DNA of 64,000 bases, taken from assembly GCF_058153355.1 (NCBI RefSeq), contig NZ_CM177019.1; one strand, 5' to 3'. The notes under the pieces were generated by a model. That model was given only the letters and a program-made list of their open reading frames with translations. It was not told where the DNA came from and searched no databases. The position numbers and the translations under genes were made by a program. Positions 25,774-44,066 of this stretch are shown here, piece by piece (positions within the stretch are counted from its first letter, which is position 1; every line of letters starts with the position of its first letter).

Positions 25774-28700
25774 AAATTCTCAGCCTGCGCCTGAAAAACC
25801 TGAACTCGTTAAAAGGCGAATGGAAGATTGATTTCACCCGCGAGCCGTTCGCCAGCAATGGGCTGTTTGCGATTACCGGCCCAACCGGCGCGGGGAAAAC
25901 CACCCTGCTGGATGCCATTTGCCTGGCGCTGTATCACGAAACTCCGCGCCTTTCTAACGTTTCACAATCGCAAAATGATCTAATGACCCGCGATACCGCC
26001 GAATGTCTGGCGGAAGTGGAGTTTGAAGTCAAAGGTGAAGCGTACCGTGCATTCTGGAGCCAGAATCGGGCGCGTAACCAGCCAGACGGTAATTTGCAGG
26101 TGCCGCGCGTAGAGCTGGCGCGCTGTACCGATGGCAAAATTCTCGCTGACAAAGTGAAAGATAAGCTGGAACTGACGGCGACGTTAACCGGACTGGATTA
26201 TGGGCGTTTCACCCGTTCGATGCTGCTTTCGCAGGGGCAATTTGCTGCCTTCCTGAATGCCAAACCAAAAGAACGCGCGGAATTGCTCGAGGAATTAACC
26301 GGCACCGAAATCTACGGGCAAATCTCTGCGATGGTCTTTGAGCAGCACAAATCGGCCCGCACTGAGCTGGAGAAACTGCAAGCGCAGGCCAGCGGCGTCG
26401 CGTTATTAGCGCCAGAACAAGTGCAATCGCTGACAGAAAGTTTGCAGGTACTCACTGTCGAAGAGAAACAGTTACTCGCCGCGCAGCAGCAAGAACAACA
26501 ATCGTTAAACTGGTTAACGCGTCTGGACGAATTGCAGCAAGAAGCCAGCCGCCGTCAGCAGGCATTGCAACAGGCGTTAGCCGAAGAAGAAAAAGCGCAA
26601 CCTCAACTGGCGGCGCTCAGTCTGGCACAACCGGCGCGAAATCTTCGTCCGCACTGGGAACGCATCGCAGAACACACTGCGGCACTGGCGCATACTCGCC
26701 AGCAGATTGAAGAAGTAAATACTCGCTTACAGCGCACAATGGCGCTTCGTGCGAGCATTCGCCACCACGCGGCGAAGCAGTCTGCAGAATTACATCAGCA
26801 GCAACAAAGCCTGAATGCCTGGTTACAGGAACACGACCGCTTCCGTCAGTGGAACAACGAACTGGCGGGTTGGCGTGCGCAATTCTCTCAACAAACCAGC
26901 GAACGCGAGCATCTGCGGCAGTGGCAGCAACAGTTAACCCATGCAGAGCAAAAACTTAATTCACTTCCGGCGATCTCGTTGACGTTAAGCGCCGATGAAG
27001 TTGCTAGCGCCCAGGCGCAACATGCTGAGCAACGCACGCTGCGTCAGCGCCTGGTCGCGCTGCATGGGCAGATTGTTCCCCAACAAAAACGCCTGGCGCA
27101 ATTACAGGTTGCTATCCAGAATGTCACGCAGGAACAGACGCAACGTAACGCCGCACTTAACGAAATGCGCCAGCGTTATAAAGAAAAAACGCAACAACTT
27201 GCCGATGTGAAAACCATTTGCGAGCAGGAAGCTCGTATCAAAACGCTGGAAGTTCAACGTGCGCAGTTACAGGCGGGTCAGCCTTGCCCACTTTGTGGTT
27301 CCACCAACCACCCGGCAGTAGAGGCGTATCAGGCACTGGAACCGGGTGTTAATCAGGCCCGCTTACTGACGCTTGAAAACGAAGTGAAAAAGCTCGGGGA
27401 GGAAGGCGCGGCGCTGCGCGGGCAACTGGATGCATTAACGAAGCAGCTTCAGCGCGATGAGAACGAAGCGCAAAGCCTCCGACAAGATGAGCAAGCACTT
27501 ACTCAACAGTGGCGAGCTGTCACAGCCAGCCTCAATATCACCTTGCAGCCACAGGACGACATTCAACCGTGGCTGGATGCACAAGATGAACATGAACGCC
27601 AGTTGCGGTTACTCAGCCAACGACATGAATTACAAGGGCAGATTGCTGCGCATAATCAACAAATTATCCAGTATCAACAGCAAATTGAACAACGCCAGCA
27701 GCAACTCTCTGCGGCATTAGCGAGTTACGCGCTGGCATTGCCACAGGAAAATGAAGAAGAGAGCTGGTTAGCGACACGTCAGCAAGAAGCGCAGAGCTGG
27801 CAACAGCGTCAGAACGAATTAACCACGCTGCAAAACCGTATTCAGCAACTGACGCCGATTCTGGATACGTTACCGCAAGGTGATGAGTTACCGCACAGCG
27901 AAGAAACAGTGGCACTGGAAAACTGGCGGCAAATTCATGAACAATGTCTCGCGTTACAAAGCCAGCAGCAAACGTTGCAGCAGCAAGGCGTTCTGGCGAC
28001 ACAAAGTCTGCAAAAAGCCCAGGCGCAGTTTGACACCGCGCTACAGGCCAGCGTCTTTGACGATCAGCAGGCGTTCCTTGCAGCACTGATGGATGAACAA
28101 ACACTAACGCAACTGGAACAGCTCAAACAGAATCTGGAAAACCAGCGCCGTCAGGCGCAAACGTTGACCGCTCAGACAGCAGAAACGCTGGCACAGCATC
28201 AGCAACACCGACCTGACGGCCTGGATCTCAGTGTGACGGTGGAGCAGATTCAGCAAGAGTTAGCGCAAACTCACCAAAAGTTGCGTGAAAACACCACCAG
28301 TCAGGGCGAGATTCGTCAACAGCTGAAACAGGATGCGGAAAACCGTCAGCAACAACAAACCTTAATGCAGCAAATTGCTCAAATGACGCAGCAGGTTGAG
28401 GACTGGGGATATCTGAATTCGCTAATAGGTTCCAAAGAGGGCGATAAATTCCGTAAGTTCGCCCAAGGGCTGACGCTGGATAATTTAGTCCATCTCGCTA
28501 ATCAGCAACTTACCCGGTTACACGGGCGCTATCTGTTACAGCGCAAAGCCAGCGAGGCGCTGGAAGTCGAGGTTGTTGATACCTGGCAGGCAGATGCGGT
28601 ACGCGATACCCGTACCCTTTCCGGTGGCGAGAGTTTCCTCGTCAGTCTGGCGCTGGCGCTGGCGCTTTCGGATCTGGTCAGCCATAAAACGCGTATTGAC

Positions 28701-28913
28701 TCGCTGTTCCTTGATGAAGGTTTTGGCACGCTGGATAGCGAAACGCTGGATACCGCCCTTGATGCGCTGGATGCCCTGAACGCCAGCGGCAAAACCATCG
28801 GTGTGATTAGCCACGTTGAAGCGATGAAAGAGCGTATTCCGGTGCAGATCAAAGTGAAGAAGATCAACGGACTAGGCTACAGCAAGCTGGAAAATGCATT
28901 TGCAGTGAAATAA
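25770..28913 (+). CDS. sbcC: Nuclease SbcCD subunit C (SMC-like ATPase)
   Basis: 1047-aa ORF; Walker A (GPTGAGKTT), long Q-rich coiled coil, zinc hook CPLCGS, C-terminal signature ([18 protein letters not shown]); ATGA overlap with sbcD. Confidence 0.95.
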
Positions 28914-29038
28914 CTATTCAGCAGGATAATGAATACAGAGGGGCGAATTATCTCTTGGCCTCACTGGTCGTTATCCTGCAAGCTATCACTTTATTGGCTA
29001 CGGTGATTGGTAGCCGTTCTGGTGGTTGTGATGGTGGT

Positions 29039-30223
29039 ATGAAAAAAGTTATTTTATCTTTGGCTCTGGGCACGTTTGGTTTGGGAATGGCCGAATTTGG
29101 CATTATGGGCGTGCTTACGGAGCTGGCACATAACGTAGGTATTTCGATTCCTGCCGCCGGGCATATGATCTCGTATTATGCGCTGGGGGTGGTGGTCGGT
29201 GCACCAATCATCGCACTCTTTTCCAGCCGCTACTCGCTCAAACATATCTTGTTGTTTCTGGTGGCGTTGTGCGTTATTGGCAATGCCATGTTCACGCTCT
29301 CTTCGTCTTACCTGATGCTCGCCCTTGGTCGTCTGGTATCCGGTTTTCCGCATGGCGCTTTTTTTGGCGTCGGGGCGATTGTGTTATCGAAAATTATCAA
29401 ACCCGGCAAAGTCACCGCCGCCGTGGCGGGGATGGTTTCGGGGATGACAGTTGCCAATTTGCTGGGCATTCCGCTGGGGACGTATTTAAGTCAGGAGTTT
29501 AGCTGGCGTTACACCTTTTTATTGATCTCTGTGTTTAATATCGCGGTGATGGCATCGGTCTATTTTTGGGTGCCGGATATTCGCGACGAGGCGAAAGGAA
29601 AGCTGCGCGAACAATTTCACTTTTTGCGCAGCCCGGCCCCGTGGTTAATTTTCGCTGCCACGATGTTTGGCAACGCGGGTGTATTTGCCTGGTTCAGCTA
29701 CGTAAAGCCATACATGATGTTTATTTCCGGTTTTTCGGAAACGGCGATGACCTTTATTATGATGTTAGTTGGGCTGGGGATGGTGTTGGGGAATGTGCTA
29801 AGTGGCCGGATTTCAGGACGTTATTCACCACTACGCATTGCGGCAGTGACTGATTTCATTATTGTGCTGGCATTGCTGATGCTCTTTTTCTTCGGCGGCA
29901 TGAAAACAACGTCGCTTATTTTTGCTTTTATTTGTTGCGCGGGATTATTTGCCCTCTCTGCACCGCTGCAAATATTGTTACTGCAAAATGCCAAAGGTGG
30001 AGAATTATTAGGTGCCGCAGGTGGGCAAATAGCGTTTAACCTCGGTAGCGCCGTCGGCGCATATTGCGGAGGTATGATGCTGACGCTGGGGCTGACTTAT
30101 AATTACGTGGCGCTGCCTGCCGCCCTGCTCTCGTTTGCTGCGATGTCGTCGTTGCTGCTGTATGGTCGCTATAAGCGCCAGCAAGCGGCGGATAGTCCGA
30201 TGCTGGCGAAACCACTGGGATAG
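29039..30223 (+). CDS. araJ: MFS transporter AraJ
   Basis: ORF track 28955..30223; start refined to MKKVILSLALGTFGLGMAEFGIMGVLTELAH; 394 aa. Confidence 0.85.
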   Translation: MKKVILSLALGTFGLGMAEFGIMGVLTELAHNVGISIPAAGHMISYYALGVVVGAPIIALFSSRYSLKHILLFLVALCVIGNAMFTLSSSYLMLALGRLVSGFPHGAFFGVGAIVLSKIIKPGKVTAAVAGMVSGMTVANLLGIPLGTYLSQEFSWRYTFLLISVFNIAVMASVYFWVPDIRDEAKGKLREQFHFLRSPAPWLIFAATMFGNAGVFAWFSYVKPYMMFISGFSETAMTFIMMLVGLGMVLGNVLSGRISGRYSPLRIAAVTDFIIVLALLMLFFFGGMKTTSLIFAFICCAGLFALSAPLQILLLQNAKGGELLGAAGGQIAFNLGSAVGAYCGGMMLTLGLTYNYVALPAALLSFAAMSSLLLYGRYKRQQAADSPMLAKPLG

Positions 30224-30243
30224 GTTGCAGTCACTGCTTGTTG

Positions 30244-30330
30244 TCGGATGCGGCGCGAGCGTCTTATCCGACCTACGCGGGCTGCTCATTTTGTAGGCCT
30301 GATAAGACGCGGCAAGCGTCGCATCAGGCA
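30244..30330. repeat. REP elements downstream of araJ
   Basis: GTCGGATGCGGCG...CTTATCCGACCTAC and TAGGCCTGATAAGACGCG...CGCATCAGGC motifs. Confidence 0.7.
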
Positions 30331-30354
30331 TGATGCACCAATTGCCTGGTTTTT

Positions 30355-31263
30355 TTACTCTTGTGGCCATAACCACGCAGCGCCGCGTACGCCGCTGGAA
30401 TCACCATGTTTCGCCTTACGCACCGGCGTTTCACATTCGCCGCCGAAGACAAATTGTTTAATCAACTGCGGAACCGTTTGATATAAACGATCTACATTGC
30501 TCATCCCGCCCCCCAACACAATCACATCCGGATCGAGAATATTCACGACATGTGCCAGCGATTTTGCCAGCCGCAGCTCGTAACGACGCAATGCCAACTC
30601 CGCTACCGGATCGCTTTCTTCAACAAGGCGGATAATTTCACTACCTTTCAGCGCATGTCCGCTCAAACGATGATAATCCGTCGCAAATCCCGTACCCGAA
30701 ATAAAGGTTTCAATGCAGCCTTGTTTGCCGCAATAACAAGGGACTTCCTCGCGATAACGCAGTTCATCTTCGTCCATCCACGGTAGCGGATTGTGTCCCC
30801 ACTCGCCTGCCGTGCCATTGCCGCCGATATGCGCTCGACCATTGAACGCTACGCCCGCGCCGCATCCCGTGCCGATAATCACGGCAAATACCGTCTGCGC
30901 TCCCGCAGCTGCGCCATCTACCGCTTCCGAGACCGCCAGACAGTTGGCGTCATTTGCCAACCGCACTTCCCGTTGCAACCGCGCGCTTAAATCTTTATCA
31001 AATGGCTGACCGTTAAGCCAGGTTGAATTGGCATTTTTCACCACGCCAGTGTAAGGCGAAATCGAGCCTGGAATGCCCATGCCTACCGTTCCGCGCTGCC
31101 CTGTCGCCTGCTCCGCCATATCAACCAACGTGGCGATCGTTTCGATGGTCTGATGGTAATCATCACGCGGCGTGGGCAGACGATGACGATACAACTGCTC
31201 CCCTGCATCGCCCAGTGCAATCACTTCAGTTTTAGTGCCGCCTAAATCGATACCTATACGCAC
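30355..31263 (-). CDS. mak: Fructokinase (manno(fructo)kinase), ROK family
   Basis: ORF track 30355..31401; start refined to GTG giving [23 protein letters not shown]...; ROK motifs; about 302 aa. Confidence 0.85.
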
Positions 31264-31387
31264 GGTACTCTCCTTATTTTTTTCAATATCAATAGCGTAG
31301 AGACGGACAACCGGATTGGCAATGCAAGGCCGCCGACAATTCGTTATCATGCCCGCTAAATTTAACGACAAGGCCGTGGAAATTATC

Positions 31388-32299
31388 ATGCTGTGGTTCA
31401 AAAATTTAATGGTTTACCGTCTTAGCCGCGAGATTTCGCTGCGTGCAGAAGAGATGGAAAAACAGCTAGCCTCGATGGCATTTACCCCATGCGGCAGCCA
31501 GGACATGGCGAAGATGGGCTGGGTTCCTCCGATGGGATCGCACAGCGATGCGTTAACGCACGTTGCCAATGGTCAAATTGTTATCTGCGCACGCAAAGAA
31601 GAAAAAATCCTCCCGTCTCCGGTGATTAAACAGGCGCTGGAAGCAAAAATCGCCAAGCTGGAAGCGGAACAGGCGCGCAAGCTGAAGAAAACCGAAAAAG
31701 ATTCGCTGAAAGATGAAGTGCTGCACTCTCTTCTGCCGCGCGCTTTCAGCCGTTTCAGCCAAACCATGATGTGGATCGACACGGTAAACGGTTTGATTAT
31801 GGTGGACTGCGCCAGTGCCAAAAAAGCAGAAGATACGCTGGCATTACTGCGTAAAAGCCTGGGGTCGTTACCGGTTGTACCATTGAGCATGGAAAACCCG
31901 ATTGAACTGACGCTGACCGAATGGGTACGCTCTGGTAGTGCGGCACAAGGCTTCCAGCTGCTTGATGAAGCCGAACTGAAATCGTTGCTGGAAGATGGCG
32001 GCGTGATCCGCGCGAAGAAACAAGATTTGACCAGCGAAGAAATCACCAACCACATTGAAGCAGGAAAAGTGGTGACTAAACTGGCGCTCGACTGGCAGCA
32101 GCGCATTCAGTTTGTGATGTGCGACGATGGTTCACTCAAGCGTCTGAAGTTCTGCGACGAGCTGCGCGATCAAAACGAAGATATCGACCGTGAAGATTTT
32201 GCCCAACGTTTTGATGCCGATTTCATCCTGATGACCGGTGAACTGGCAGCATTAATCCAAAACCTGATCGAAGGATTAGGTGGCGAAGCACAACGTTAA
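31388..32299 (+). CDS. rdgC: Recombination-associated protein RdgC
   Basis: ORF track 31316..32299 (TTG-initiated frame); start refined to [31 protein letters not shown]...; 303 aa. Confidence 0.9.
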
Positions 32300-32318
32300 T
32301 TGCTGATTTGCCTTTAAT

Positions 32319-32353
32319 GCCGGATGCGACGCCTGCGGCGTCTTATCCGGCGT
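32319..32353. repeat. REP element downstream of rdgC
   Basis: GCCGGATGCGACGCCTGCGGCGTCTTATCCGGC palindromic unit. Confidence 0.7.
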
Positions 32354-32376
32354 ACGAATCCACACCAGGCATATAA

Positions 32377-32832
32377 TCATTCGCTACGGCGGGCAATAAT
32401 TTTTAGCGCAGCAATATTATGCGTTTTACGCCGTAACTGATCCAACCGTCTCATCCCTATTCGCCTGTCAGCGGCACGCAGAATATTCACTAACCCCCAT
32501 TTATCGCTGGTAAATTGTTTCGTTAACAGCTCCGCTTTTGGGGTATCAATATATTCACGCAATAAATCAGAAATTGAACAAATATCCGTCAGATAAGGAT
32601 ACCAGCAAGTTTCACCATGAAAATTACGCACTCCACCATTGCCTGCCATAAAGTCTTTTGGGTAATCCCAGATTACGTCTTTATCCAACGTGATCCAATA
32701 ACGTGGTAAATCGGTGCTTCCACCATTTTGGCTGCGCATGGGATAACGGGTACAGTGAATTTGCAGGTTGATCGTTGGCGTCAGTAAGTCATAAATCTCC
32801 CTCTGTAACTTGCTCCAGGGGCGTTGTGTCAT
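32377..32832 (-). CDS. Hypothetical protein (151 aa), downstream partner in a two-gene accessory module
   Basis: ORF track; start overlaps the stop of the upstream 762-aa ORF by 4 bp (translational coupling); no signal peptide; not recognised. Confidence 0.65.
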
Positions 32833-35117
32833 TGTTTTTCCTCAAGCCGGTTACGCGCTTCACTGCGAATTTGCCGCGTTGCCCCGGTTTTCACTAAATC
32901 ACGTAACTGCGAAAGATCGGGCTGATCGACAAATAAGATTAATGATGGATCCTCTTTTAACCACGCCGTTTTCACATCGGCAGCCAACTGTGGATTATTA
33001 ATAGCCAGCGCCCGATCCTGTGACTCAGTCAATGTCGTTAACAAAGAGGCTGGGGTATGTACATTGCGCAACGCCGTCTGCCGCAAATGATCATTGTGAC
33101 TTTTCAGCAATCCGCACCACCATTCATCATCTGATTTATCTTTTATCGTATCCAGCTCCGCAAAAATATCGCTTTCCTCATGATTCCAGCGGAGTAATCC
33201 TCTTTCACTTTGTCTACGGGTGCTATTTTTCATACTGACAACAGACAACGCCCAGTCGGAGTTAAAACGATACTGTTGATCGAGTTTGTTGATAATTCCG
33301 GAGGGTAAATCTTCATTATCAAATAGCTGGTTTCGCATCCGATAGCGGTATTCAGCAGGTAAATAAACCAGTAAATCGATGGCATTATTAAACATCTCTT
33401 CGTCAATAATACCATTATCAATCAGCGCCAGCTGTACTTCGTAGGCTTGCTCTTGATCTTCTTGCCGTTTACTCATCATTAATTTTAAGGTGTGTTGCCA
33501 TAATTGTTTCTTATACTCCAGAGGTAATAATTTATCGCGTGCCAGCTCATACCAGATGCTGGGAATGTCATGCTGATTCAGTAGATAACTAATCACTTCC
33601 TTCGAGGTCAGATAACGCATGCCGTCACGTAAGTTGTGCACATCTTCTTTTGCCAAAGTCAGTTGACGCGACTCCGGCAAAGCGACCAATAACGCCTTCA
33701 CGATATTTTTATTTTCTTTATTATCCAGATACATTTGTTCTGCGATACGTTCAACATCCTCTGTACTCAGGGTCGCTGACAGTTGGGTGATTTTTAGTTC
33801 AGTAAGCGTCCGGGCTAATGCTTGACGAACTTTCAGCGATTTATCTTTACTCAACAACACCGCTTGTTGTGCGGTTAAATCGGCTCCGGTAATTCTTTCG
33901 CGTAACTCCGGATCTTCGCTATTTATCAATTCATCAACCACTGCAGTTGGAACCAGCCAGGCGTAATCGTAATGGCTGATTAATGTCTTGCGCACACTGA
34001 GAAAAGGGCTTTGACTTAACGACACAACAATATCAGGAGAAAGATTATCCTGTCTGGCCTGCTCCAGCTGTATGCTCTCGACGGGTACAGACATTAATTT
34101 TTTATTCACTTCGGCGGATATATTGCTGTTTTTAACCAGTCCTCTGGCAACAGCTTCATCTTTAATTAATTCATCGGTAAGCAAATGCATGTGTTGAGCA
34201 GGCCAGGACTGCGCCATTGATTCACGCGTCTGGTCATCAGGGTGCTGTAACAATTGCAGCATAACAGCGGGTGACAAACGCTCTATATGTGTCAGAAAAC
34301 GTGCCATCAGTGGATCTTCATGCTTTATTTTATCCGCAGGGAAATTGTCGAGTTTACCCGCTTCAATCCACTGTAATTTCTCATTAATTTTAGAATCAGC
34401 TTTATCTCGAAAAACAGGTAACCCCTGAATTATATTATCTGCGACGCTATCATAGTCAGGATACGCATTAAAAATATTATCAGTTTCGATTTCAGTATGA
34501 TCGTAAAAGTCGGGATTCACCAGTGAATAGGCTTTCTTAATATTCTCATCCCAGCTATATCCTTCACCACTTGCATCTTCATTGATATAAAATTCAGCTT
34601 TGATGGACTCAAATTGCGTTGCTTTATCGGAAACAATAATTCCTCGTGCGCTAATTCCCTTCATCACTTCAAAATTATGATCATTATAATCAGCATAAAC
34701 TAAACCTTTTGCTGTCATCTGCCCTTTGACATACGCGAAATCATGATTAATAAAGTTATCGACAATAACATTACCTAGTACAATCAGATGACCATTACCT
34801 GACAGATAATCATCATAATCGCCGGAAATCGTTAAATTACCGTTCACCACCAGTTTATGCTGATTGCTGAAGTTAGTGGGTAATGATAGGTCACCATTAT
34901 GATAATACCAGCGGATATTATCTTTTAGCATATAAGCAGCTTCCATACTATCGTTGGTTGCCGCTTTAACCACGTTGCGCTCATCTGCCGTCATAAGATG
35001 AAAGTCAGAGGTGATAAGGTCCTCGCTACTGATCCACTCTGTGGCACATGCATTGCCAGTCATAAAAAATACGACCATACAGATGACCAATATATTAATT
35101 CTATTCATAATCTTCAC
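32829..35117 (-). CDS. Hypothetical exported protein (762 aa) with N-terminal signal peptide
   Basis: ORF track; N-terminus [25 protein letters not shown] is a Sec-type signal peptide with an A-x-A site; N-terminal Asn/Gly/Asp-rich region followed by a long helical region; not recognised; no such genes recalled between rdgC and ppnP in K-12. Confidence 0.7.
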
Positions 35118-35290
35118 TGATATTTATATCAACCTTGATGAATTATGAATATATCGGAAATCGAAAAAATCGCAGCAAAGGAAATATTATTATGGGTTAA
35201 AGAGAGGATATTTCAGAAAAATGCCCTCCCGTTCATGGGGAAGGCGAGGAATTACAGATAGCGGCACAGATAAGAGGTGGGTTCGGCAAC

Positions 35291-35536
35291 TTACAGATGA
35301 AACTCGCTGTGACCGGGAACATTAAACACCGAACCGGCTTCATACACTTGCCAGTCGGTCGCGTCAGGCAGTAACACATTCAGCGCACCACTGATTACCG
35401 TCATCTCTTCAGGCTCAGCGGTGCTGAAGGTGTATTCGCCTTCAACCATAACACCCACGCTGGCGCGGCCAGTGCTACTGCTGGAAAAGCCGATCGATTT
35501 CACTTTGCCGGAAAAGTACTCATTACTTTGAAGCAT
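35291..35536 (-). CDS. ppnP: Pyrimidine/purine nucleoside phosphorylase PpnP (YaiE), truncated by an in-frame TAA at codon 82
   Basis: 81-aa ORF ([37 protein letters not shown]...GHSEFHL*); the same frame continues after the TAA as VAEPTSYLCRYL*, which is the C-terminus I recall for the 94-aa protein. Confidence 0.8.
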
Positions 35537-35607
35537 AAACTGGCCCTGTCTGGTAGTTGAACATCTACTTCACTATAGGGGCCAGAGGCGCTGGCTGTCA
35601 CGCAAAA

Positions 35608-36285
35608 TTACACCAGCAATTCCGCAGCTAGCCGTGCAATCAATACGTTAGAGAGCAAGACAGGAACATCGAGCTGTTTTTGCAGTAAATCGCGATGACG
35701 CTGGTTAAATCCCAAACAATCCAGCATGATGACATCTGCGCCTTTTGCCAGTAATTCTTTCCCGGCATCAATGATTTTTTGTTCCGAATCATGAATGGGG
35801 TTACCCAATGAAAATACTGGCGGTTTCTGCAAAATTTGCCATTTTTGCGCCTGAACGGTCAGTAGCTCTTCAACCGGTACGATAACCCCCACCTGATGAT
35901 CTTCAATAATAGAGGAAACCAGCGGTGGCAATATTCGCAACGGCTCAAGAAAGATCGTATTACGCTCAGTCATACTCCTAATGTTTGCTGTACTCATTAA
36001 TATAATGACGTCGTAGCCCTGATTATCGAGCACTTCAACCACACCTTGCAGGTCTCGCTCCACTTTGCGACGCGAAACATGGGCCAGTTGGTTGTCATTT
36101 AATAATGTGAGAATTGTGTCTTCGCCTGCTTCTGGCGCGTACTCTGCCATCACTTCTTCACGGCTTAACTTTCCCAGCAGGCTATGATGGGAAATATTAT
36201 CTTCGTCAATGTATTCTGTCAGGAGCGGCAAAACTTCCTGCATAGGTACAATGCCGATGGTCAGAATCGCCAACGACGCACTCAT
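35608..36285 (-). CDS. aroM: Protein AroM
   Basis: 225-aa ORF ([34 protein letters not shown]...); aroL-yaiA-aroM order. Confidence 0.85.
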
Positions 36286-36542
36286 TGTTCTTCCACCTTA
36301 CTTTTATTTCGTCGTTAATTACCGGGCAAGTGTTAAGCACCACTGCTGACACTTACTTGTGCTACAAATGACAAAAAGCGTAGCAGCAGACCTGCTCGGC
36401 ATAATGTAAAGATTCCAAATGATTCCAGTAATGGATTGTTATTGTTTAATATTCTAATTATTTGAAAAACATGAATTGTGAAAAATGTGACGCAGATCCC
36501 TTGTGGTGGCACTCAGAATCCCTTCCGAGCAGTCTGATGCGG

Positions 36543-36743
<201 letters not shown>

Positions 36744-36783
36744 TTATTTCACGGGATGAACGTTAAGTATAGGCGCTCGAAAA

Positions 36784-37308
36784 TCAACAATTGATCGTCT
36801 GTGCCAGGGCGCTGCGAATTTCAGAAATCACCTGGCTGGGTTCGTTTGTTGCGTCGATGATAATATGCGCAACTTCGCGATATAGCGCATCGCGTTCTTC
36901 CAGCACTTCCTGAACTTCTTCGCTCAGCGGTTTCCCCGTTAAGGTTGGCCGTAAATCTTCTTCCGGTGCAGCTTGCAGTCGGTTAACCAGGACTGATACT
37001 GGCGCACACAAATAAACCACGATCCCGTTATTTTGCATAAAGTGACGATTAAATTCCGTCAGGATAATGCCGCCGCCCGTGGCGATAACGGTGGATGGCG
37101 CAGTTACCGCTTCCAACGCCGCCGTTTCTCTGGCGCGGAATCCCGCCCACTCTTCCCTTTCGACGATCTCCGCGACCGTCATATTGAGCTGTGATTGCAA
37201 CCACTGGTCGGTATCGACAAACCGACGGTTAAGTGAATCGGCAAGGGCCATTCCGACCGTTGTTTTACCACAGCCCCGAGGCCCGATCAGAAAAAGAGGT
37301 TGTGTCAT
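36784..37308 (-). CDS. aroL: Shikimate kinase II
   Basis: 174-aa ORF with Walker A ([11 protein letters not shown]); recognised AroL. Confidence 0.95.
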
Positions 37309-37461
37309 CGTGGGTTTTCCCCAATAGGTCGCAATGCGGCGAAAGCCGGTGTCATGAGAATAGCGATCATACCATCAAACTAGTACAATTTCGATTGTAA
37401 AGAAAAAATTCCACTTAAAGTGAAAATTTTAATACATCCCTTACTATACCAATAAATTTTC

Positions 37462-37479
37462 AAGAATGAAGTGTAAATA
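37462..37479. promoter_or_regulatory. Candidate TyrR box in the aroL promoter region
   Basis: TGTAAATAATAAATTACA matches the TyrR box pattern TGTAAA-N6-TTTACA; an ACTAGT core (possible TrpR site) lies about 90 bp away at roughly 37378. Confidence 0.5.
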
Positions 37480-37490
37480 ATAAATTACAT

Positions 37491-37949
37491 TCAGCCACGA
37501 CTACGTTGCACTTCCAGCCACCACTTCTCCAGCTCCGCGGCAAAGGCCTGGCGGTCACGTTGTGAAAGGCTATCTGGTCCCCCGGTCTGGATCCCACTGG
37601 CGCGTAAGGTATCCATAAAATCGCGCATCGTCAGGCGCTCACGAATGGTCGCTGGTGTGTAACGTTCGCCGCGTGGATTAAGCGCCGCAGCGCCTTTCTC
37701 GATGGCTTCAGCAGCCAAAGGAATATCTGCGGTGATCACCAAATCGCCCGCTTCACACTGCCGGACAATTTCGTTATCGGCAACGTCGAAACCTGCCGCG
37801 ACGCGCAGCGTTCGAATAAATCGCGAAGGTGGTACGCGTAAACTCTGGTTTGCTACCAGTACCAGCGGCATCTGCATACGTTCAGCCGCGCGATACAAAA
37901 TCTCTTTAATTACATTGGGACACGCGTCGGCATCCACCCAAATTGTCAT
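37491..37949 (-). CDS. yaiI: UPF0178 protein YaiI
   Basis: ORF track 37491..38069; start refined to [26 protein letters not shown]; 152 aa. Confidence 0.8.
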
Positions 37950-38068
37950 AAAGTCATCCTTTGTTGGGTAATTCTCTATTGTGTCGCGCTTTTGCCTTCC
38001 GGCATAGTTCTGTTTATGCTTCTGCCAGCGATTATCAAAACAATGAATTTCACGGCAGGAGTGAGGCA

Positions 38069-38878
38069 ATGGAAAAGAAAATCGGTTTTATTGGCTGCGG
38101 CAATATGGGAAAAGCCATTCTCGGCGGTCTGATTGCCAGCGGTCAGGTGCTTCCAGGGCAAATCTGGGTATATACCCCCTCCCCGGATAAAGTCGCCGCC
38201 CTGCATGACCAGTTCGGCATCAACGCCGCAGAATCGGCGCAGGAAGTGGCGCAAATCGCCGACATCATTTTCGCCGCCGTTAAACCGGGCATCATGATTA
38301 AAGTGCTTAGCGAAATCACCTCCAGCCTGAATAAAGACTCTCTGGTCGTTTCTATTGCTGCGGGTGTCACGCTCGACCAGCTTGCCCGCGCGCTGGGCCA
38401 TGACCGGAAAATTATCCGCGCCATGCCGAACACTCCCGCACTGGTTAATGCCGGGATGACCTCCGTAACGCCAAACGCGCTGGTAACCCCAGAAGATACC
38501 GCTGATGTGCTGAATATTTTCCGCGGCTTTGGCGAAGCGGAAGTAATTGCCGAGCCGATGATCCACCCGGTGGTCGGTGTGAGCGGTTCTTCGCCAGCCT
38601 ACGTCTTTATGTTTATCGAAGCGATGGCCGACGCCGCCGTGCTGGGCGGGATGCCACGCGCCCAGGCGTATAAATTTGCCGCTCAGGCGGTAATGGGTTC
38701 CGCAAAAATGGTGCTGGAAACGGGAGAACATCCGGGGGCACTGAAAGATATGGTCTGCTCACCGGGAGGCACCACCATTGAGGCGGTACGCGTACTGGAA
38801 GAGAAAGGCTTCCGTGCCGCAGTGATCGAAGCGATGACGAAGTGTATGGAAAAATCAGAAAAACTCAGCAAATCCTGA
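38069..38878 (+). CDS. proC: Pyrroline-5-carboxylate reductase
   Basis: ORF track 37961..38878; start refined to [21 protein letters not shown] (Rossmann motif); 269 aa. Confidence 0.95.
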
Positions 38879-38894
38879 TGACTTTCGCCGGACG

Positions 38895-40010
38895 TCAGGC
38901 CGCCACTTCGGTGCGGTTACGTCCGGCTTTCTTTGCTTTGTAGAGCGCCAAATCTGCCGATTTCAACCACTCCCGATAGTGACTCATTTGTGGATTCAGC
39001 GGCGCGACACCCACACTAATCCGTAACATCACCTGCGGTGTATTCGGCAAACGTAACGTATTTAGCCCTTCATGTACCCGTAACATGGCGGTAATGGCGC
39101 TCTCAGCTGGCGTACCGGACATGATCACCGCAAACTCATCGCCACCAAACCGACCAATCACATCGCTACCGCGCAGGGTAATTTGTAATTGTCGGGTAAG
39201 CGCCACAATCGCTTCATCGCCCACATCATGGCCCCAGGTATCGTTGATGCTCTTGAAATGGTCGATATCGATAATCAGTAACGTCGCATCGCGGTTATGC
39301 CGCCGACAGTTATCAAATTCATTGCGTAACATAGTTTCCCAATGACGTCGGTTATACACGCCCGTCATACCGTCGCGGGTACTCATGACCTGCAACCTGC
39401 GTTTATGTTCCGCCAGTTTAGTCGCCGTCTGGTAGCTGACCCAGCCAAACAGCATAGGATAAATGACGATAATGGGAAGGGAGAGCCACCATTCCAGCGG
39501 CGCACTATTGAACGACACGGTGATACCCGTCAGTTCGAGGGTGACAAGGCAGGAAACCACCATCAACACCAGACCCGCGACAAACAGACGGGGGCCGCCT
39601 GCCCCCATCAAATTCAGACACATAATCATCAACATCGCGGTGGAAGGCAGCACGTTTACGCCCATTACGCCTACCCACATTCCCGCTAATACTGCATCGG
39701 TTTTTAAGTTATAAATTTCCCGGCTAAGCGGATCGACAGCCCTACTCGCAATCTGCCAGGCTAAATGCGGCCAGACGAACGCCCAGCCGACCAACACCAG
39801 CCACCACCAGCCCGGCGGCGGGTGCGAAACCAGCGTTGAAGCAATCGGTAAGAACATGCCAGCCAGGCCAACCGCGCGGGGTAGTCTGACGCGACGGGCG
39901 AAGCGCAGCCCGGACCGCTGATGTTCGTTTTGAGGAGTTAAAGGAGGTTCCTCCCCATGCGCCGCCGCTTTTTTGAAAAAGTTTTCATCATTCATTATTT
40001 TTGGGAACAT
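38895..40010 (-). CDS. dgcC: Diguanylate cyclase DgcC (AdrA/YaiC)
   Basis: 371-aa ORF; N-terminal membrane domain and C-terminal GGDEF domain (RFGGDEF motif present). Confidence 0.9.
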   Translation of the reverse strand: MFPKIMNDENFFKKAAAHGEEPPLTPQNEHQRSGLRFARRVRLPRAVGLAGMFLPIASTLVSHPPPGWWWLVLVGWAFVWPHLAWQIASRAVDPLSREIYNLKTDAVLAGMWVGVMGVNVLPSTAMLMIMCLNLMGAGGPRLFVAGLVLMVVSCLVTLELTGITVSFNSAPLEWWLSLPIIVIYPMLFGWVSYQTATKLAEHKRRLQVMSTRDGMTGVYNRRHWETMLRNEFDNCRRHNRDATLLIIDIDHFKSINDTWGHDVGDEAIVALTRQLQITLRGSDVIGRFGGDEFAVIMSGTPAESAITAMLRVHEGLNTLRLPNTPQVMLRISVGVAPLNPQMSHYREWLKSADLALYKAKKAGRNRTEVAA

Positions 40011-40111
40011 TCAGAAACAATTTTCCCAAATTATAGAGACGGGGCTAAAGGCAGAAGTATGAAATTTCGGGTGAGCCATTTTCGTAGCTCACCCGTTAGC
40101 ACTATCAGGTA

Positions 40112-40432
40112 TCAGGCGGCTTTCTTGAGGCAGGCGCTCATAAACTTATTACGATCATCACCTTTCAGAGATTGTTGCGTTGCTTGATTATTACATTCGC
40201 GCATCTTTTGCTGCTGTGGCGTCAAACTTTTTTCATCAGGCGCAGACTTGCTGTTCTTCAGGCAATCACTCATGTAGGTCTTACGAGCATCCCCTTTCAA
40301 CGCCTGCGCCGTCGCCTGCTGATTACAGGAGGTCATACGCTGTTGTTGCGGGGTTAAGGTTCTCTCGGCAGCGCCGACGGTGGTTAAAAAAACCAGTCCG
40401 AAAAGCAAGGTAACCAGTAATGTTATTTTCAT
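40112..40432 (-). CDS. psiF: Phosphate starvation-inducible protein PsiF
   Basis: ORF track 40112..40450; start refined to MKITLLVTLLFGLVFLTTVGAA signal peptide; tandem internal repeat (LTPQQQ(R/K)M..CN(Q/N)QAT); 106 aa. Confidence 0.85.
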   Translation of the reverse strand: MKITLLVTLLFGLVFLTTVGAAERTLTPQQQRMTSCNQQATAQALKGDARKTYMSDCLKNSKSAPDEKSLTPQQQKMRECNNQATQQSLKGDDRNKFMSACLKKAA

Positions 40433-40550
40433 AGCACCATCCCTCTTCATGTTTTAACCATGAGCGTTTGCGCCCGTGATTTGCCATTAAGTCTGGTTGC
40501 TAACCGCAAAAAAACCACCCGACAGCGAGAATTCACCGCCGGGCGCGGTT

Positions 40551-41966
40551 TTATTTCAGCCCCAGGGCGGCTTTCATGGTGTAGAAGAGATCGGTCTGGT
40601 CGGTCAGTCCAACGACATTGGCGGCATGTGGGCCATACGCCGCAATACGCAGCTGACTACCGGTATGTTCTTGTGAATCCTCTTCGGAGTTCCCGTAACT
40701 CATCACCATCACTGCGCCATCTTTGGTATTTAGCGCCTGGGTGAGGCCCGGCGCTTTGGTGTCCGGCGCGACAATCTGGCTGGCGTGGGCGTGATCAGCG
40801 GTGACTATGACCAGCGTGTTGCCATCCGTTTTAGCGAATTCCAGCGCCCGTTGTACGGCTTCGTCGAGATCGACCGTCTCGCCAATTTGCCCACAAGGAT
40901 TCGCAGCGTGATCCTGTTTATCGATTGATGCACCTTCAACTTGCAGGAAAAAGCCTTTCTCATTTTTACTCAACAATTCAATGGCTTTATCAGTCATCTG
41001 CGCCAGGGTCGGTACGCTGTCATTACGTTGCGGATTAGGCGTACAGGTAACGGCGGGCTTGTCGATATTGCCGTGGTACGTTGCTTTCGGTCCTTGCCAG
41101 CGCACTGGCATATTGCCGTCAGCAAACAGGCCAAGCAGGGGTTTTTGCTGGTTCGCTTCCGTCACCGCGTTCAGCGAGGCAGCATCGTTCACTAACTGAT
41201 AACCACGCACCTGCGCCTGTTCACGCAGCGTTTTTCCCTGCCATTCACCAGCGGTTGCCGTTTCCGCAAAGGTTTTTGCGCCGCCGCCAAGCGTAACATC
41301 GGCACGGGCGTTAAGCAGCTGTTCGGTAATCGATCCTTTTCCGCCTTTTTCCAGCGCGTTACCCGGACATTTTTCACTGGTCGCGCTCGGACCGTAGCAT
41401 TTGCGCGAAGTCACATGCGCCACCAACGCGGCGGGAGTGGCATCCTGCAACTCTGCGGTAGAAATGTTACCGGTCGCCAGCCCTGCGGCTTTTGCCATTT
41501 CCAGAATCGTTGGGTGATCTTTTTCATGAATATCGACACCTAATGCGCCATTATAGGTTTTGACACCGGTTGACCAGGCAGTTGCTGATGCAGCCGAGTC
41601 GGTAACGTAGTCCGGTTTGCCGGTTTTTTTATTCAGCGCATAGTGAGTGTATTGCCCGGTAAGCGGTAAGGCATCAATACCTTTAAAAAAGCCGCCCGCA
41701 CCTTCGGCATAATTACGTGCGGCAGTAATTTCCGAATCCCCCATCCCATCGCCAATCAGCAAAATAATATTTTTTGCAGGCTTATCGCTAAGAGAATCAC
41801 GCAGAGCGGCGCTCTGATCACCCGTTAAGCGGCGAGCACCGCCGGGTGCAGTAATATCGCCCTGAGCAGCCCGGTTTTCCAGAATAGGCATTTCTGGTGT
41901 CCGGGCTTTTGTCACAGGGGTAAACAGTAACGGTAAGAGTGCCAGTGCAATAGTGCTTTGTTTCAC
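40551..41966 (-). CDS. phoA: Alkaline phosphatase
   Basis: ORF track 40551..42008; start refined to GTG ([21 protein letters not shown] signal peptide); 471 aa; near-identical to remembered K-12 PhoA with a few substitutions. Confidence 0.95.
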
Positions 41967-42028
41967 TTTATTTTCTCCATGTACAAATACATTAAAAAAT
42001 AAAAACAAAGCGACTATAAGTCTCAGCC

Positions 42029-42046
42029 GTGACAGCTTTATGACAG
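42029..42046 (-). promoter_or_regulatory. Pho box of the phoA promoter
   Basis: Minus-strand CTGTCATAAAGCTGTCAC (two CTGTCA half-sites) about 60 bp upstream of the phoA GTG start. Confidence 0.75.
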
Positions 42047-42066
42047 CTGTTGAAAAGATTACCTTT

Positions 42067-42327
42067 TTACTGACGAGGATGCTTCAATAACTTCTTTACA
42101 TAATCGCGCAGCAGCTCCGTATCGTCGTCAGGAATGCTGGCATCGGGCTTTACCTCGTAAAGTGCCCCCTCTACCTGATCAATCAACCGCTGTTGGTCAT
42201 TTTGCGCCATATTACGAAGCATTGCAGTGACGATAATCTCCAGTGCTTCTACCTGCGCGCACAGTTCTTTCGACTCTTCTTCTTTTTGGGCAAGCTTAAA
42301 TAACAACTCAGCAATGAGATTTTTCAT
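42067..42327 (-). CDS. iraP: Anti-adaptor protein IraP
   Basis: 86-aa ORF ([40 protein letters not shown]...); recognised IraP. Confidence 0.9.
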
Positions 42328-42789
42328 GTCTGTATTTCCTTATCCAAAGTATGGAGAAGTTAACATTATGCTTCACAACTTCATAGTGTCTGGAGGTAGT
42401 ATTTTTATGACGAATGAAATACTTTGCGCAAATATTTTTTCCATATTTATCAGCGAAACGTTTCTCTTATTTAAATAAGTAACCATACAAAGTATAGGTT
42501 TTTAATTATCAACCTTTATTATAAGTAAAAGTTATGAAATATATTCTCTTTGCTAACTTATAATTAAGAGAAAAAAACTCACTGCATGGCCATTTAAACC
42601 AGGAATAAATTAGCTTCCCGTTCATCATTTTTGTGATCTTGCGCACATCTTTGAGATAACGCACTTTCTTCACCAGTACGTTGCACACTTTGTCAGTAGA
42701 AGATTGCAACATTCTGTCAGAAGGCCGCGAATCCCCCGTTTTGTCGTGGTAATGTATGCACTTTGTGTTAGACGGGATAGGTTTTCAAG

Positions 42790-43884
42790 ATGGAAAAACT
42801 GCGGGTAGGAATCGTTTTTGGTGGTAAATCAGCGGAACATGAAGTGTCTTTGCAATCGGCAAAAAACATTGTCGATGCCATTGATAAAAGTCGCTTCGAC
42901 GTTGTGCTGCTGGGCATTGATAAACAAGGGCAATGGCACGTCAGCGATGCCAACAATTATCTGCTAAATGCAGACGATCCTGCCCATATTGCGTTGCGCC
43001 CTTCGGCGACCAGTCTTGCGCAGGTGCCTGGTAAACATGAGCATCAGCTTATCGACGCGCAAAACGGTCAGCCATTGCCGACGGTGGATGTCATTTTCCC
43101 GATTGTTCACGGTACGCTAGGCGAAGATGGTTCCTTGCAGGGAATGCTGCGGGTCGCCAATTTACCGTTTGTGGGTTCTGATGTTCTGGCGTCAGCAGCC
43201 TGTATGGATAAAGATGTCACCAAACGTCTGCTACGCGATGCCGGGCTGAACATTGCGCCATTTATTACCCTGACACGCACCAATCGTCAAAACATCAGTT
43301 TTGCCGAAGTGAAGTCAAAACTGGGGTTACCGCTGTTTGTAAAACCCGCTAACCAAGGCTCTTCTGTTGGTGTCAGCAAAGTAACCAGTGAAGAAGAGTA
43401 CGCAATTGCCGTCGATCTGGCGTTCGAGTTCGATCATAAAGTGATCGTTGAGCAAGGGATCAAAGGTCGTGAGATCGAATGCGCGGTTCTGGGCAACGAC
43501 AATCCGCAAGCCAGCACCTGTGGCGAGATCGTACTAACCAGCGATTTTTATGCCTACGACACCAAGTACATTGACGAAGATGGCGCGAAAGTGGTAGTTC
43601 CGGCAGCCATTGCGCCAGAAATCAACGATAAGATCCGGGCGATTGCCGTTCAGGCTTATCAGACGTTGGGATGCGCAGGCATGGCGCGTGTAGACGTGTT
43701 TTTAACCCCAGAGAACGAAGTGGTGATCAACGAGATCAACACACTGCCAGGCTTCACCAACATCAGTATGTATCCGAAGCTGTGGCAAGCCAGCGGTTTG
43801 GGTTACACCGACCTGATCACACGTCTGATCGAGTTGGCGCTGGAGCGTCACGCTGCGGATAACGCATTGAAAACCACAATGTAA
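42790..43884 (+). CDS. ddlA: D-alanine--D-alanine ligase A
   Basis: 364-aa ORF ([42 protein letters not shown]...); ATP-grasp fold. Confidence 0.95.
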
Positions 43885-43889
43885 TTTTT

Positions 43890-43919
43890 AAATGCCCAAT
43901 AACTGTAATTGGGCATTTA
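43890..43919 (+). terminator. Putative ddlA terminator hairpin
   Basis: Inverted repeat AAATGCCCAAT...ATTGGGCATTT immediately after the ddlA stop. Confidence 0.55.
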
Positions 43920-44066
43920 AGACTGTAAGATTGCCTGATGCGCTTTGCTTATCAGGCCTACAAGATAATTGCAATATACTGATTTTGTAGGCAGGATAAG
44001 GCGTTCGCGCCGCGTCCGGCAAAAACAACGAGCACTTTGTCAGCCCCCAGAACGCCCAATCCTCTG

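Follow-up and report, generated by a model that had tools for sequence, protein, structure and literature searches.

The pyrimidine/purine nucleoside phosphorylase PpnP of Escherichia coli K-12 (YaiE; WP_000941942.1) is a protein of 94 residues, whose gene lies between aroM and the rdgC-side genes and for which two solved structures, 7EYJ and 7EYK, are available. The AlphaFold2 model of the full-length chain, which comprises ten β-strands and has a mean pLDDT of 94.7, agrees closely with 7EYJ (TM 0.98, 0.7 Å, 94 residues), and its more distant structural neighbours are cupins. In the nucleoside catabolism of E. coli, DeoD, XapA and Udp have overlapping substrates. PpnP itself has been treated as an isoenzyme of Udp, and an E. 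coli production strain deleted for both genes (Δudp ΔppnP) showed no adverse growth effect (PMC13090712).

The ppnP locus and its premature stop

In the window, by which we mean the whole stretch of 64,000 nucleotides analysed here, ppnP occupies the same position as in K-12 and residues 1–81 of its product are identical to those of K-12 PpnP, but residues 82–94, with the last β-strand and the invariant Y89-L90-C91, are missing. The truncated frame, recognised from the list of open reading frames, the sequence itself, Pfam and NCBIfam, lies on the minus strand (35291..35536, read from the ATG at 35536 to 35291) and encodes 81 residues with the C-terminal end ...VPGHSEFHL. It is closed at codon 82 by a premature ochre stop, TAA (35291..35293, minus strand), whose first base, at position 35293, is a T on the coding strand where the wild type has a C. 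Past this stop, the same frame reads GTT GCC GAA CCC ACC TCT TAT CTG TGC CGC TAT CTG TAA, that is, 12 orphaned codons specifying VAEPTSYLCRYL followed by the original stop, which ends at 35252; these 39 bp (35252..35290, minus strand) are identical to the wild type.

The wild-type reference, a common E. coli allele, was the ppnP gene of Z0117EC0005, the complete E. coli genome closest to the window; its product (WP_000941942.1, 94 aa) is also that of K-12 J53. Over an alignment of 306 bp, the window differs from it solely by a C→T substitution at the first base of codon 82, which turns CAA into TAA. The earlier note on this DNA had described an in-frame TAA that removes the last 13 codons of ppnP, had placed it at a Gln codon of the 94-residue K-12 protein and had read it as a Gln82-to-stop nonsense mutation in an otherwise intact gene; the coordinates and the codon count are correct, and the alignment with K-12 and other E. 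coli alleles, which it had proposed as a check, shows the mutation directly, with a 94-residue wild type and a single C→T at codon 82. Because the comparison with the orthologue is made base for base, chance is not at issue for this allele, which we refer to as Q82*. The mutated C does not lie in a Dcm (CCWGG) site, as read from the sequence.

The genomic setting is that of an ordinary ppnP gene. Upstream lies aroM (35608..36285, minus strand) and downstream a gene for a DUF2773 protein of 762 residues (32829..35117, minus strand), so that ppnP follows aroM within an aroL-yaiA-aroM-ppnP neighbourhood, in the same order as in annotated genomes. Its premature stop (CAA→TAA, codon 82), where orthologues at the same locus are intact, is the lesion expected of a nonsense-type pseudogene, which the gene would be if its product has lost function. 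Consensus scans gave, as pattern matches only, a σ70-like promoter upstream of the ppnP start (GTGACA-18-TATAGT, 10 of 12 positions; 35572..35601, minus strand) and, directly 3′ of the original stop, a terminator-like hairpin of 8 pairs, 6 of them G-C, followed by ATTTTT (35223..35245, minus strand). No further decay of ppnP was found in the 306 bp compared with the wild-type allele, and the tail, the promoter-like site, the start codon and the terminator-like hairpin are in place. The wild-type tail, the intact expression signals and the lack of other lesions fit a young mutation.

Carriers and origins of the Gln82 stop

Q82* is rare. Among the 5,416 complete RefSeq E. coli genomes in which the site is present, none matches exactly a 57-mer with the mutated base at its centre, the best matches listed carrying one mismatch each, and a scan of 100,044 species-representative genomes returned no match to any Q82* allele. 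The closest complete RefSeq E. coli genome reaches 98.7% identity over 16 kb (window 28000..44000), and it is this distance of the clone from all complete genomes that explains the zero exact matches among them. The allele is nonetheless already known in the sense that it is present in public databases: the exact 81-residue product is recorded on 67 contigs, and it occupies 146 index blocks in the collection looked up. The sources name it as E. coli PpnP, with EFN3206653.1 and EFP4124581.1, for example, entered as 'pyrimidine/purine nucleoside phosphorylase [Escherichia coli]'. Given this many records, a mutation private to one genome is ruled out; likewise, an origin in Shigella, at which the name of the neighbouring SF0329 family might hint, finds no support, as the sources assign the 81-residue protein to E. 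coli.

Two of the carriers belong to the same clone as the window. One (L003, GCA_015332025.1) is 99.985% identical to it over 20,246 bp and the other (L004, the Logan assembly of SRR28786219) 99.993% identical over 15,235 bp, and both have the same TAA. The three differ from each other at 1–4 scattered sites (window positions 41019, 37373, 37370 and 33795) and are therefore separate isolates of one lineage in which the stop was inherited. Q82* is thus an ordinary strain polymorphism, real, inherited and rare.

The stop also occurs outside this clone. In a K-12-like assembly (L002, GCA_965257995.1), a single base differs from J53 in 6,001 bp, and this is the C→T at nucleotide 244 of ppnP. A third haplotype is represented by GCA_027559675.1 (L005), to which 17 further contigs among the 24 read are similar. 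Within ppnP, these two assemblies differ from each other at nucleotides 42, 189, 243 and 258, of which the differences at 243 and 258 are synonymous and flank the mutated base, at distances of 1 bp on the 5′ side and 14 bp on the 3′ side, while the haplotype of the window departs from both at 57 sites in 1,430 bp. With differences so close on either side of the stop, a transfer by recombination would need a tract of less than 15 bp. A single origin followed by spread through recombination is ruled out on these grounds, the K-12-like carrier being K-12 in everything except this base and the third haplotype having synonymous sites on both flanks, and the haplotypes indicate that Q82* arose at least three times independently.

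In the third haplotype, the stop mutation is directly adjoined by a synonymous G→T (CTG CAA to CTT TAA; positions 5230..5231 of the contig, ppnP nucleotides 243–244), and, from their placement, the two changes could have arisen together as a tandem double substitution instead of separately.

Predicted consequences for the protein and probable tolerance of its loss

The 81-residue product is still recognised by both family models. It scores 96.1 bits against Pfam PF06865 (Ppnp; cut-off 25) over model positions 2–80 of 92, and 162.9 bits against the NCBIfam equivalog NF007875 (cut-off 143) over positions 1–81 of 94. The full-length protein covers positions 2–92 and 1–94, respectively, and the truncated form falls short of this coverage by the C-terminal strand with its conserved Y-L-C motif; the tail lost to the stop accounts for 20.8 of the 116.9 Pfam bits and 33 of the 196 NCBIfam bits. 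Staying above the equivalog threshold would be the reason why the sources name the product an ordinary PpnP and attach no pseudogene flag to it, and metabolic reconstructions of the Q82* clone would then wrongly assume PpnP activity if, as seems likely, the product is inactive.

Mapped onto the AlphaFold2 model, Q82* deletes the entire last strand (residues 87–93) together with the final two residues of the strand formed by residues 77–83. An alignment of five solved homologues of 49–86% identity, from E. coli, Salmonella, Pseudomonas aeruginosa, Vibrio parahaemolyticus and V. cholerae, shows that V83, Y89, L90 and C91 are invariant. Because the last β-strand of the cupin fold, including Y89-L90-C91, is removed, the truncated chain is likely to be unstable, misfolded or inactive, and the allele is thus predicted to be one of loss of function.

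The explanation that we favour, and which we regard as quite probable when taken as a whole, is that the E. coli ancestor of the clone underwent a spontaneous C→T transition, which changed CAA (Gln82) into an ochre TAA and was then inherited by descent. Translation would end 13 codons early, yielding an 81-residue product whose small cupin barrel lacks the last β-strand and the final part of the one before it. Such a product would most likely be misfolded or inactive, which would make of ppnP a young, otherwise undecayed pseudogene or a hypomorph. Because the cell can do without ppnP and other nucleoside phosphorylases overlap with it in activity, the loss would be tolerated, and the allele may persist as a rare polymorphism that is neutral or nearly so. 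Read in this way, Q82* illustrates how a nonsense polymorphism in a dispensable housekeeping gene can be real and yet rare, and in itself it matters little.

Q82* is not the only natural ppnP nonsense allele in E. coli and Shigella assemblies; the others are lesions of the same kind in the same gene, each of them rare, but they affect different codons. Three of them were seen in the 90%-identity PpnP protein cluster, namely W62* (61 aa, 102 contigs), E78* (77 aa, 53 contigs) and C91* (90 aa, 202 contigs), and three more, Q63*, E85* and Y89*, were looked up as controls. Three synonymous haplotypes carry Q63* (375 index blocks) and two haplotypes carry E85* (132 index blocks), with real stop codons in both cases. 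Y89* was found in 111 index blocks; of the three loci inspected, one has a clean point stop (T267G), in another the stop stands beside further changes at the end of the contig, and in the last the gene is simply cut off by a contig end. All six nonsense alleles checked besides Q82* are therefore on record. In total, 31 single-base routes lead to a stop in ppnP, of which five, including that at Q82, are transitions: Q82*, Q63* and W62* arise by transitions, and E78*, E85*, Y89* and C91* by transversions. The E. coli-type 61-residue form that results from W62* is labelled 'Klebsiella pneumoniae, partial' by one source in the cluster (P0006), a record that is probably mislabelled or derived from a contaminated assembly.

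Four other explanations have to be weighed against an inherited loss of function. That the TAA is a sequencing or assembly error of a single record might be suspected of a one-base difference that no complete RefSeq E. coli genome shares, but two further assemblies of the clone, made independently, have this base too, as do unrelated backgrounds, and an error is ruled out as its source, with a residual probability that we consider negligible. Of the three possibilities left side by side in the earlier note, a real strain polymorphism and incipient pseudogenisation accordingly hold up, and sequencing error does not. A bypass of the stop, by readthrough, recoding or an ochre suppressor, would allow the full-length protein still to be made, and the 12 downstream codons are indeed intact and in frame; against this, no tRNA gene was found within the 64-kb window and no Rfam RNA family matches near the stop, and the youth of the mutation accounts for the intact tail, which leaves a bypass extremely unlikely. 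More weight is due to the view that the 81-residue protein still folds and is at least partly active, so that the gene would be no pseudogene and its product a tolerated length variant. C-terminal truncations of PpnP do circulate, with lengths of 90 (202 contigs), 88, 84, 81 and 77 residues, the Q82* allele has persisted for long enough for its carriers to diverge by 1–4 SNPs per 15–20 kb, the product remains above the NCBIfam equivalog cut-off, and the absence of any other decay fits a shortened protein that is still useful just as well as it fits a young lesion. What is lost, however, is a complete β-strand of the barrel with three residues that are invariant across homologues of 49–86% identity, and the records contain the more severe W62* and Q63* no less often, so that the frequency of an allele is uninformative as to retained function. 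On balance, we consider a functional length variant unlikely.

The last alternative accepts the loss of function and disputes its neutrality, proposing that the absence of PpnP is advantageous in some niches and that recurrent adaptive inactivation explains why the same stop appeared at least three times. Its strongest points are the three independent origins of Q82* and the many other ppnP nonsense alleles, some of them on several haplotypes, and recurrence in three backgrounds could in principle reflect selection rather than sampling depth. Each of these alleles is, however, very rare, Q82* being absent from all 5,416 complete genomes, and codon 82 is among the few transition routes to a stop. 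Moreover, the collection looked up spans, by the look-up tool's own description, 153 billion gene positions, and a collection this large should contain all accessible nonsense alleles of a dispensable gene, often more than once; the presence of all six of the other alleles fits such saturation by mutation alone. The homoplasy of Q82*, that is, the independent occurrence of the same stop in several backgrounds at the present depth of sampling, is for this reason by itself no evidence of selection or of a mutational hotspot. Codon 82 as a special hotspot is unsupported in any case, as Q63*, E85* and Y89* are also real and the former two occur on more than one haplotype. If selection in natural E. 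coli lineages acted time and again for a shortened or missing PpnP, for example as a retuning of nucleoside salvage, Q82* would be a favoured route, since one transition suffices to take away the terminal strand; we judge both this proposal and that of niche-specific inactivation to be highly improbable, and retain near-neutral persistence of an inherited ochre mutation as the explanation to be preferred.

The neighbouring DUF2773/SF0329 pair and the regional context

Downstream of ppnP, the gene for the DUF2773 protein overlaps by 4 bp with one of the SF0329 family (PF25753; 151 aa; 32377..32832, minus strand), and both are intact in the window. The earlier note had taken this pair for an accessory module whose local history might be linked to the stop, an idea that finds no support in the carriers, since the stop occurs with the full, the partial and the remnant module. 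The intact pair accompanies Q82* in the window and in the two other isolates of its clone, SF0329 alone is present in the third haplotype, and the K-12-like carrier has a K-12-type context in which only a DUF2773 fragment and YkiD are left; conversely, codon 82 reads CAA in close relatives in which the module is present. Divergence from the nearest complete genome over 16 kb is likewise mosaic and is not centred on ppnP, with 4.2% at the sbcC end, about 2.8% in DUF2773, 1.9% in aroM and three sites in ppnP. Together with the varied module contexts, this argues against a link between Q82* and the pair.

The pair itself is frameshifted in Z0117EC0005 and interrupted by an internal stop in MFDS1022581, both among the nearest complete genomes, and K-12 J53 retains only a C-terminal fragment of DUF2773 and YkiD. 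Judged by these comparisons, the 'accessory module' looks like an ancestral pair of unassigned function that often decays.

DUF2773 also ranks with the region's most diverged genes, at 2.76% relative to MFDS1022581. An sbcC segment (window 28000..28900) differs by 4.2% from the nearest complete genome, while most neighbouring genes differ by 0.3–1.9%, a pattern which suggests that the region has had a mosaic, recombinant history. Elsewhere in the window, the Rfam family naRNA4 (RF02564) has four matches of 70.9–81.5 bits, three of them in tandem, at 60013..60091 on the minus strand and 62119..62398 on the plus strand.
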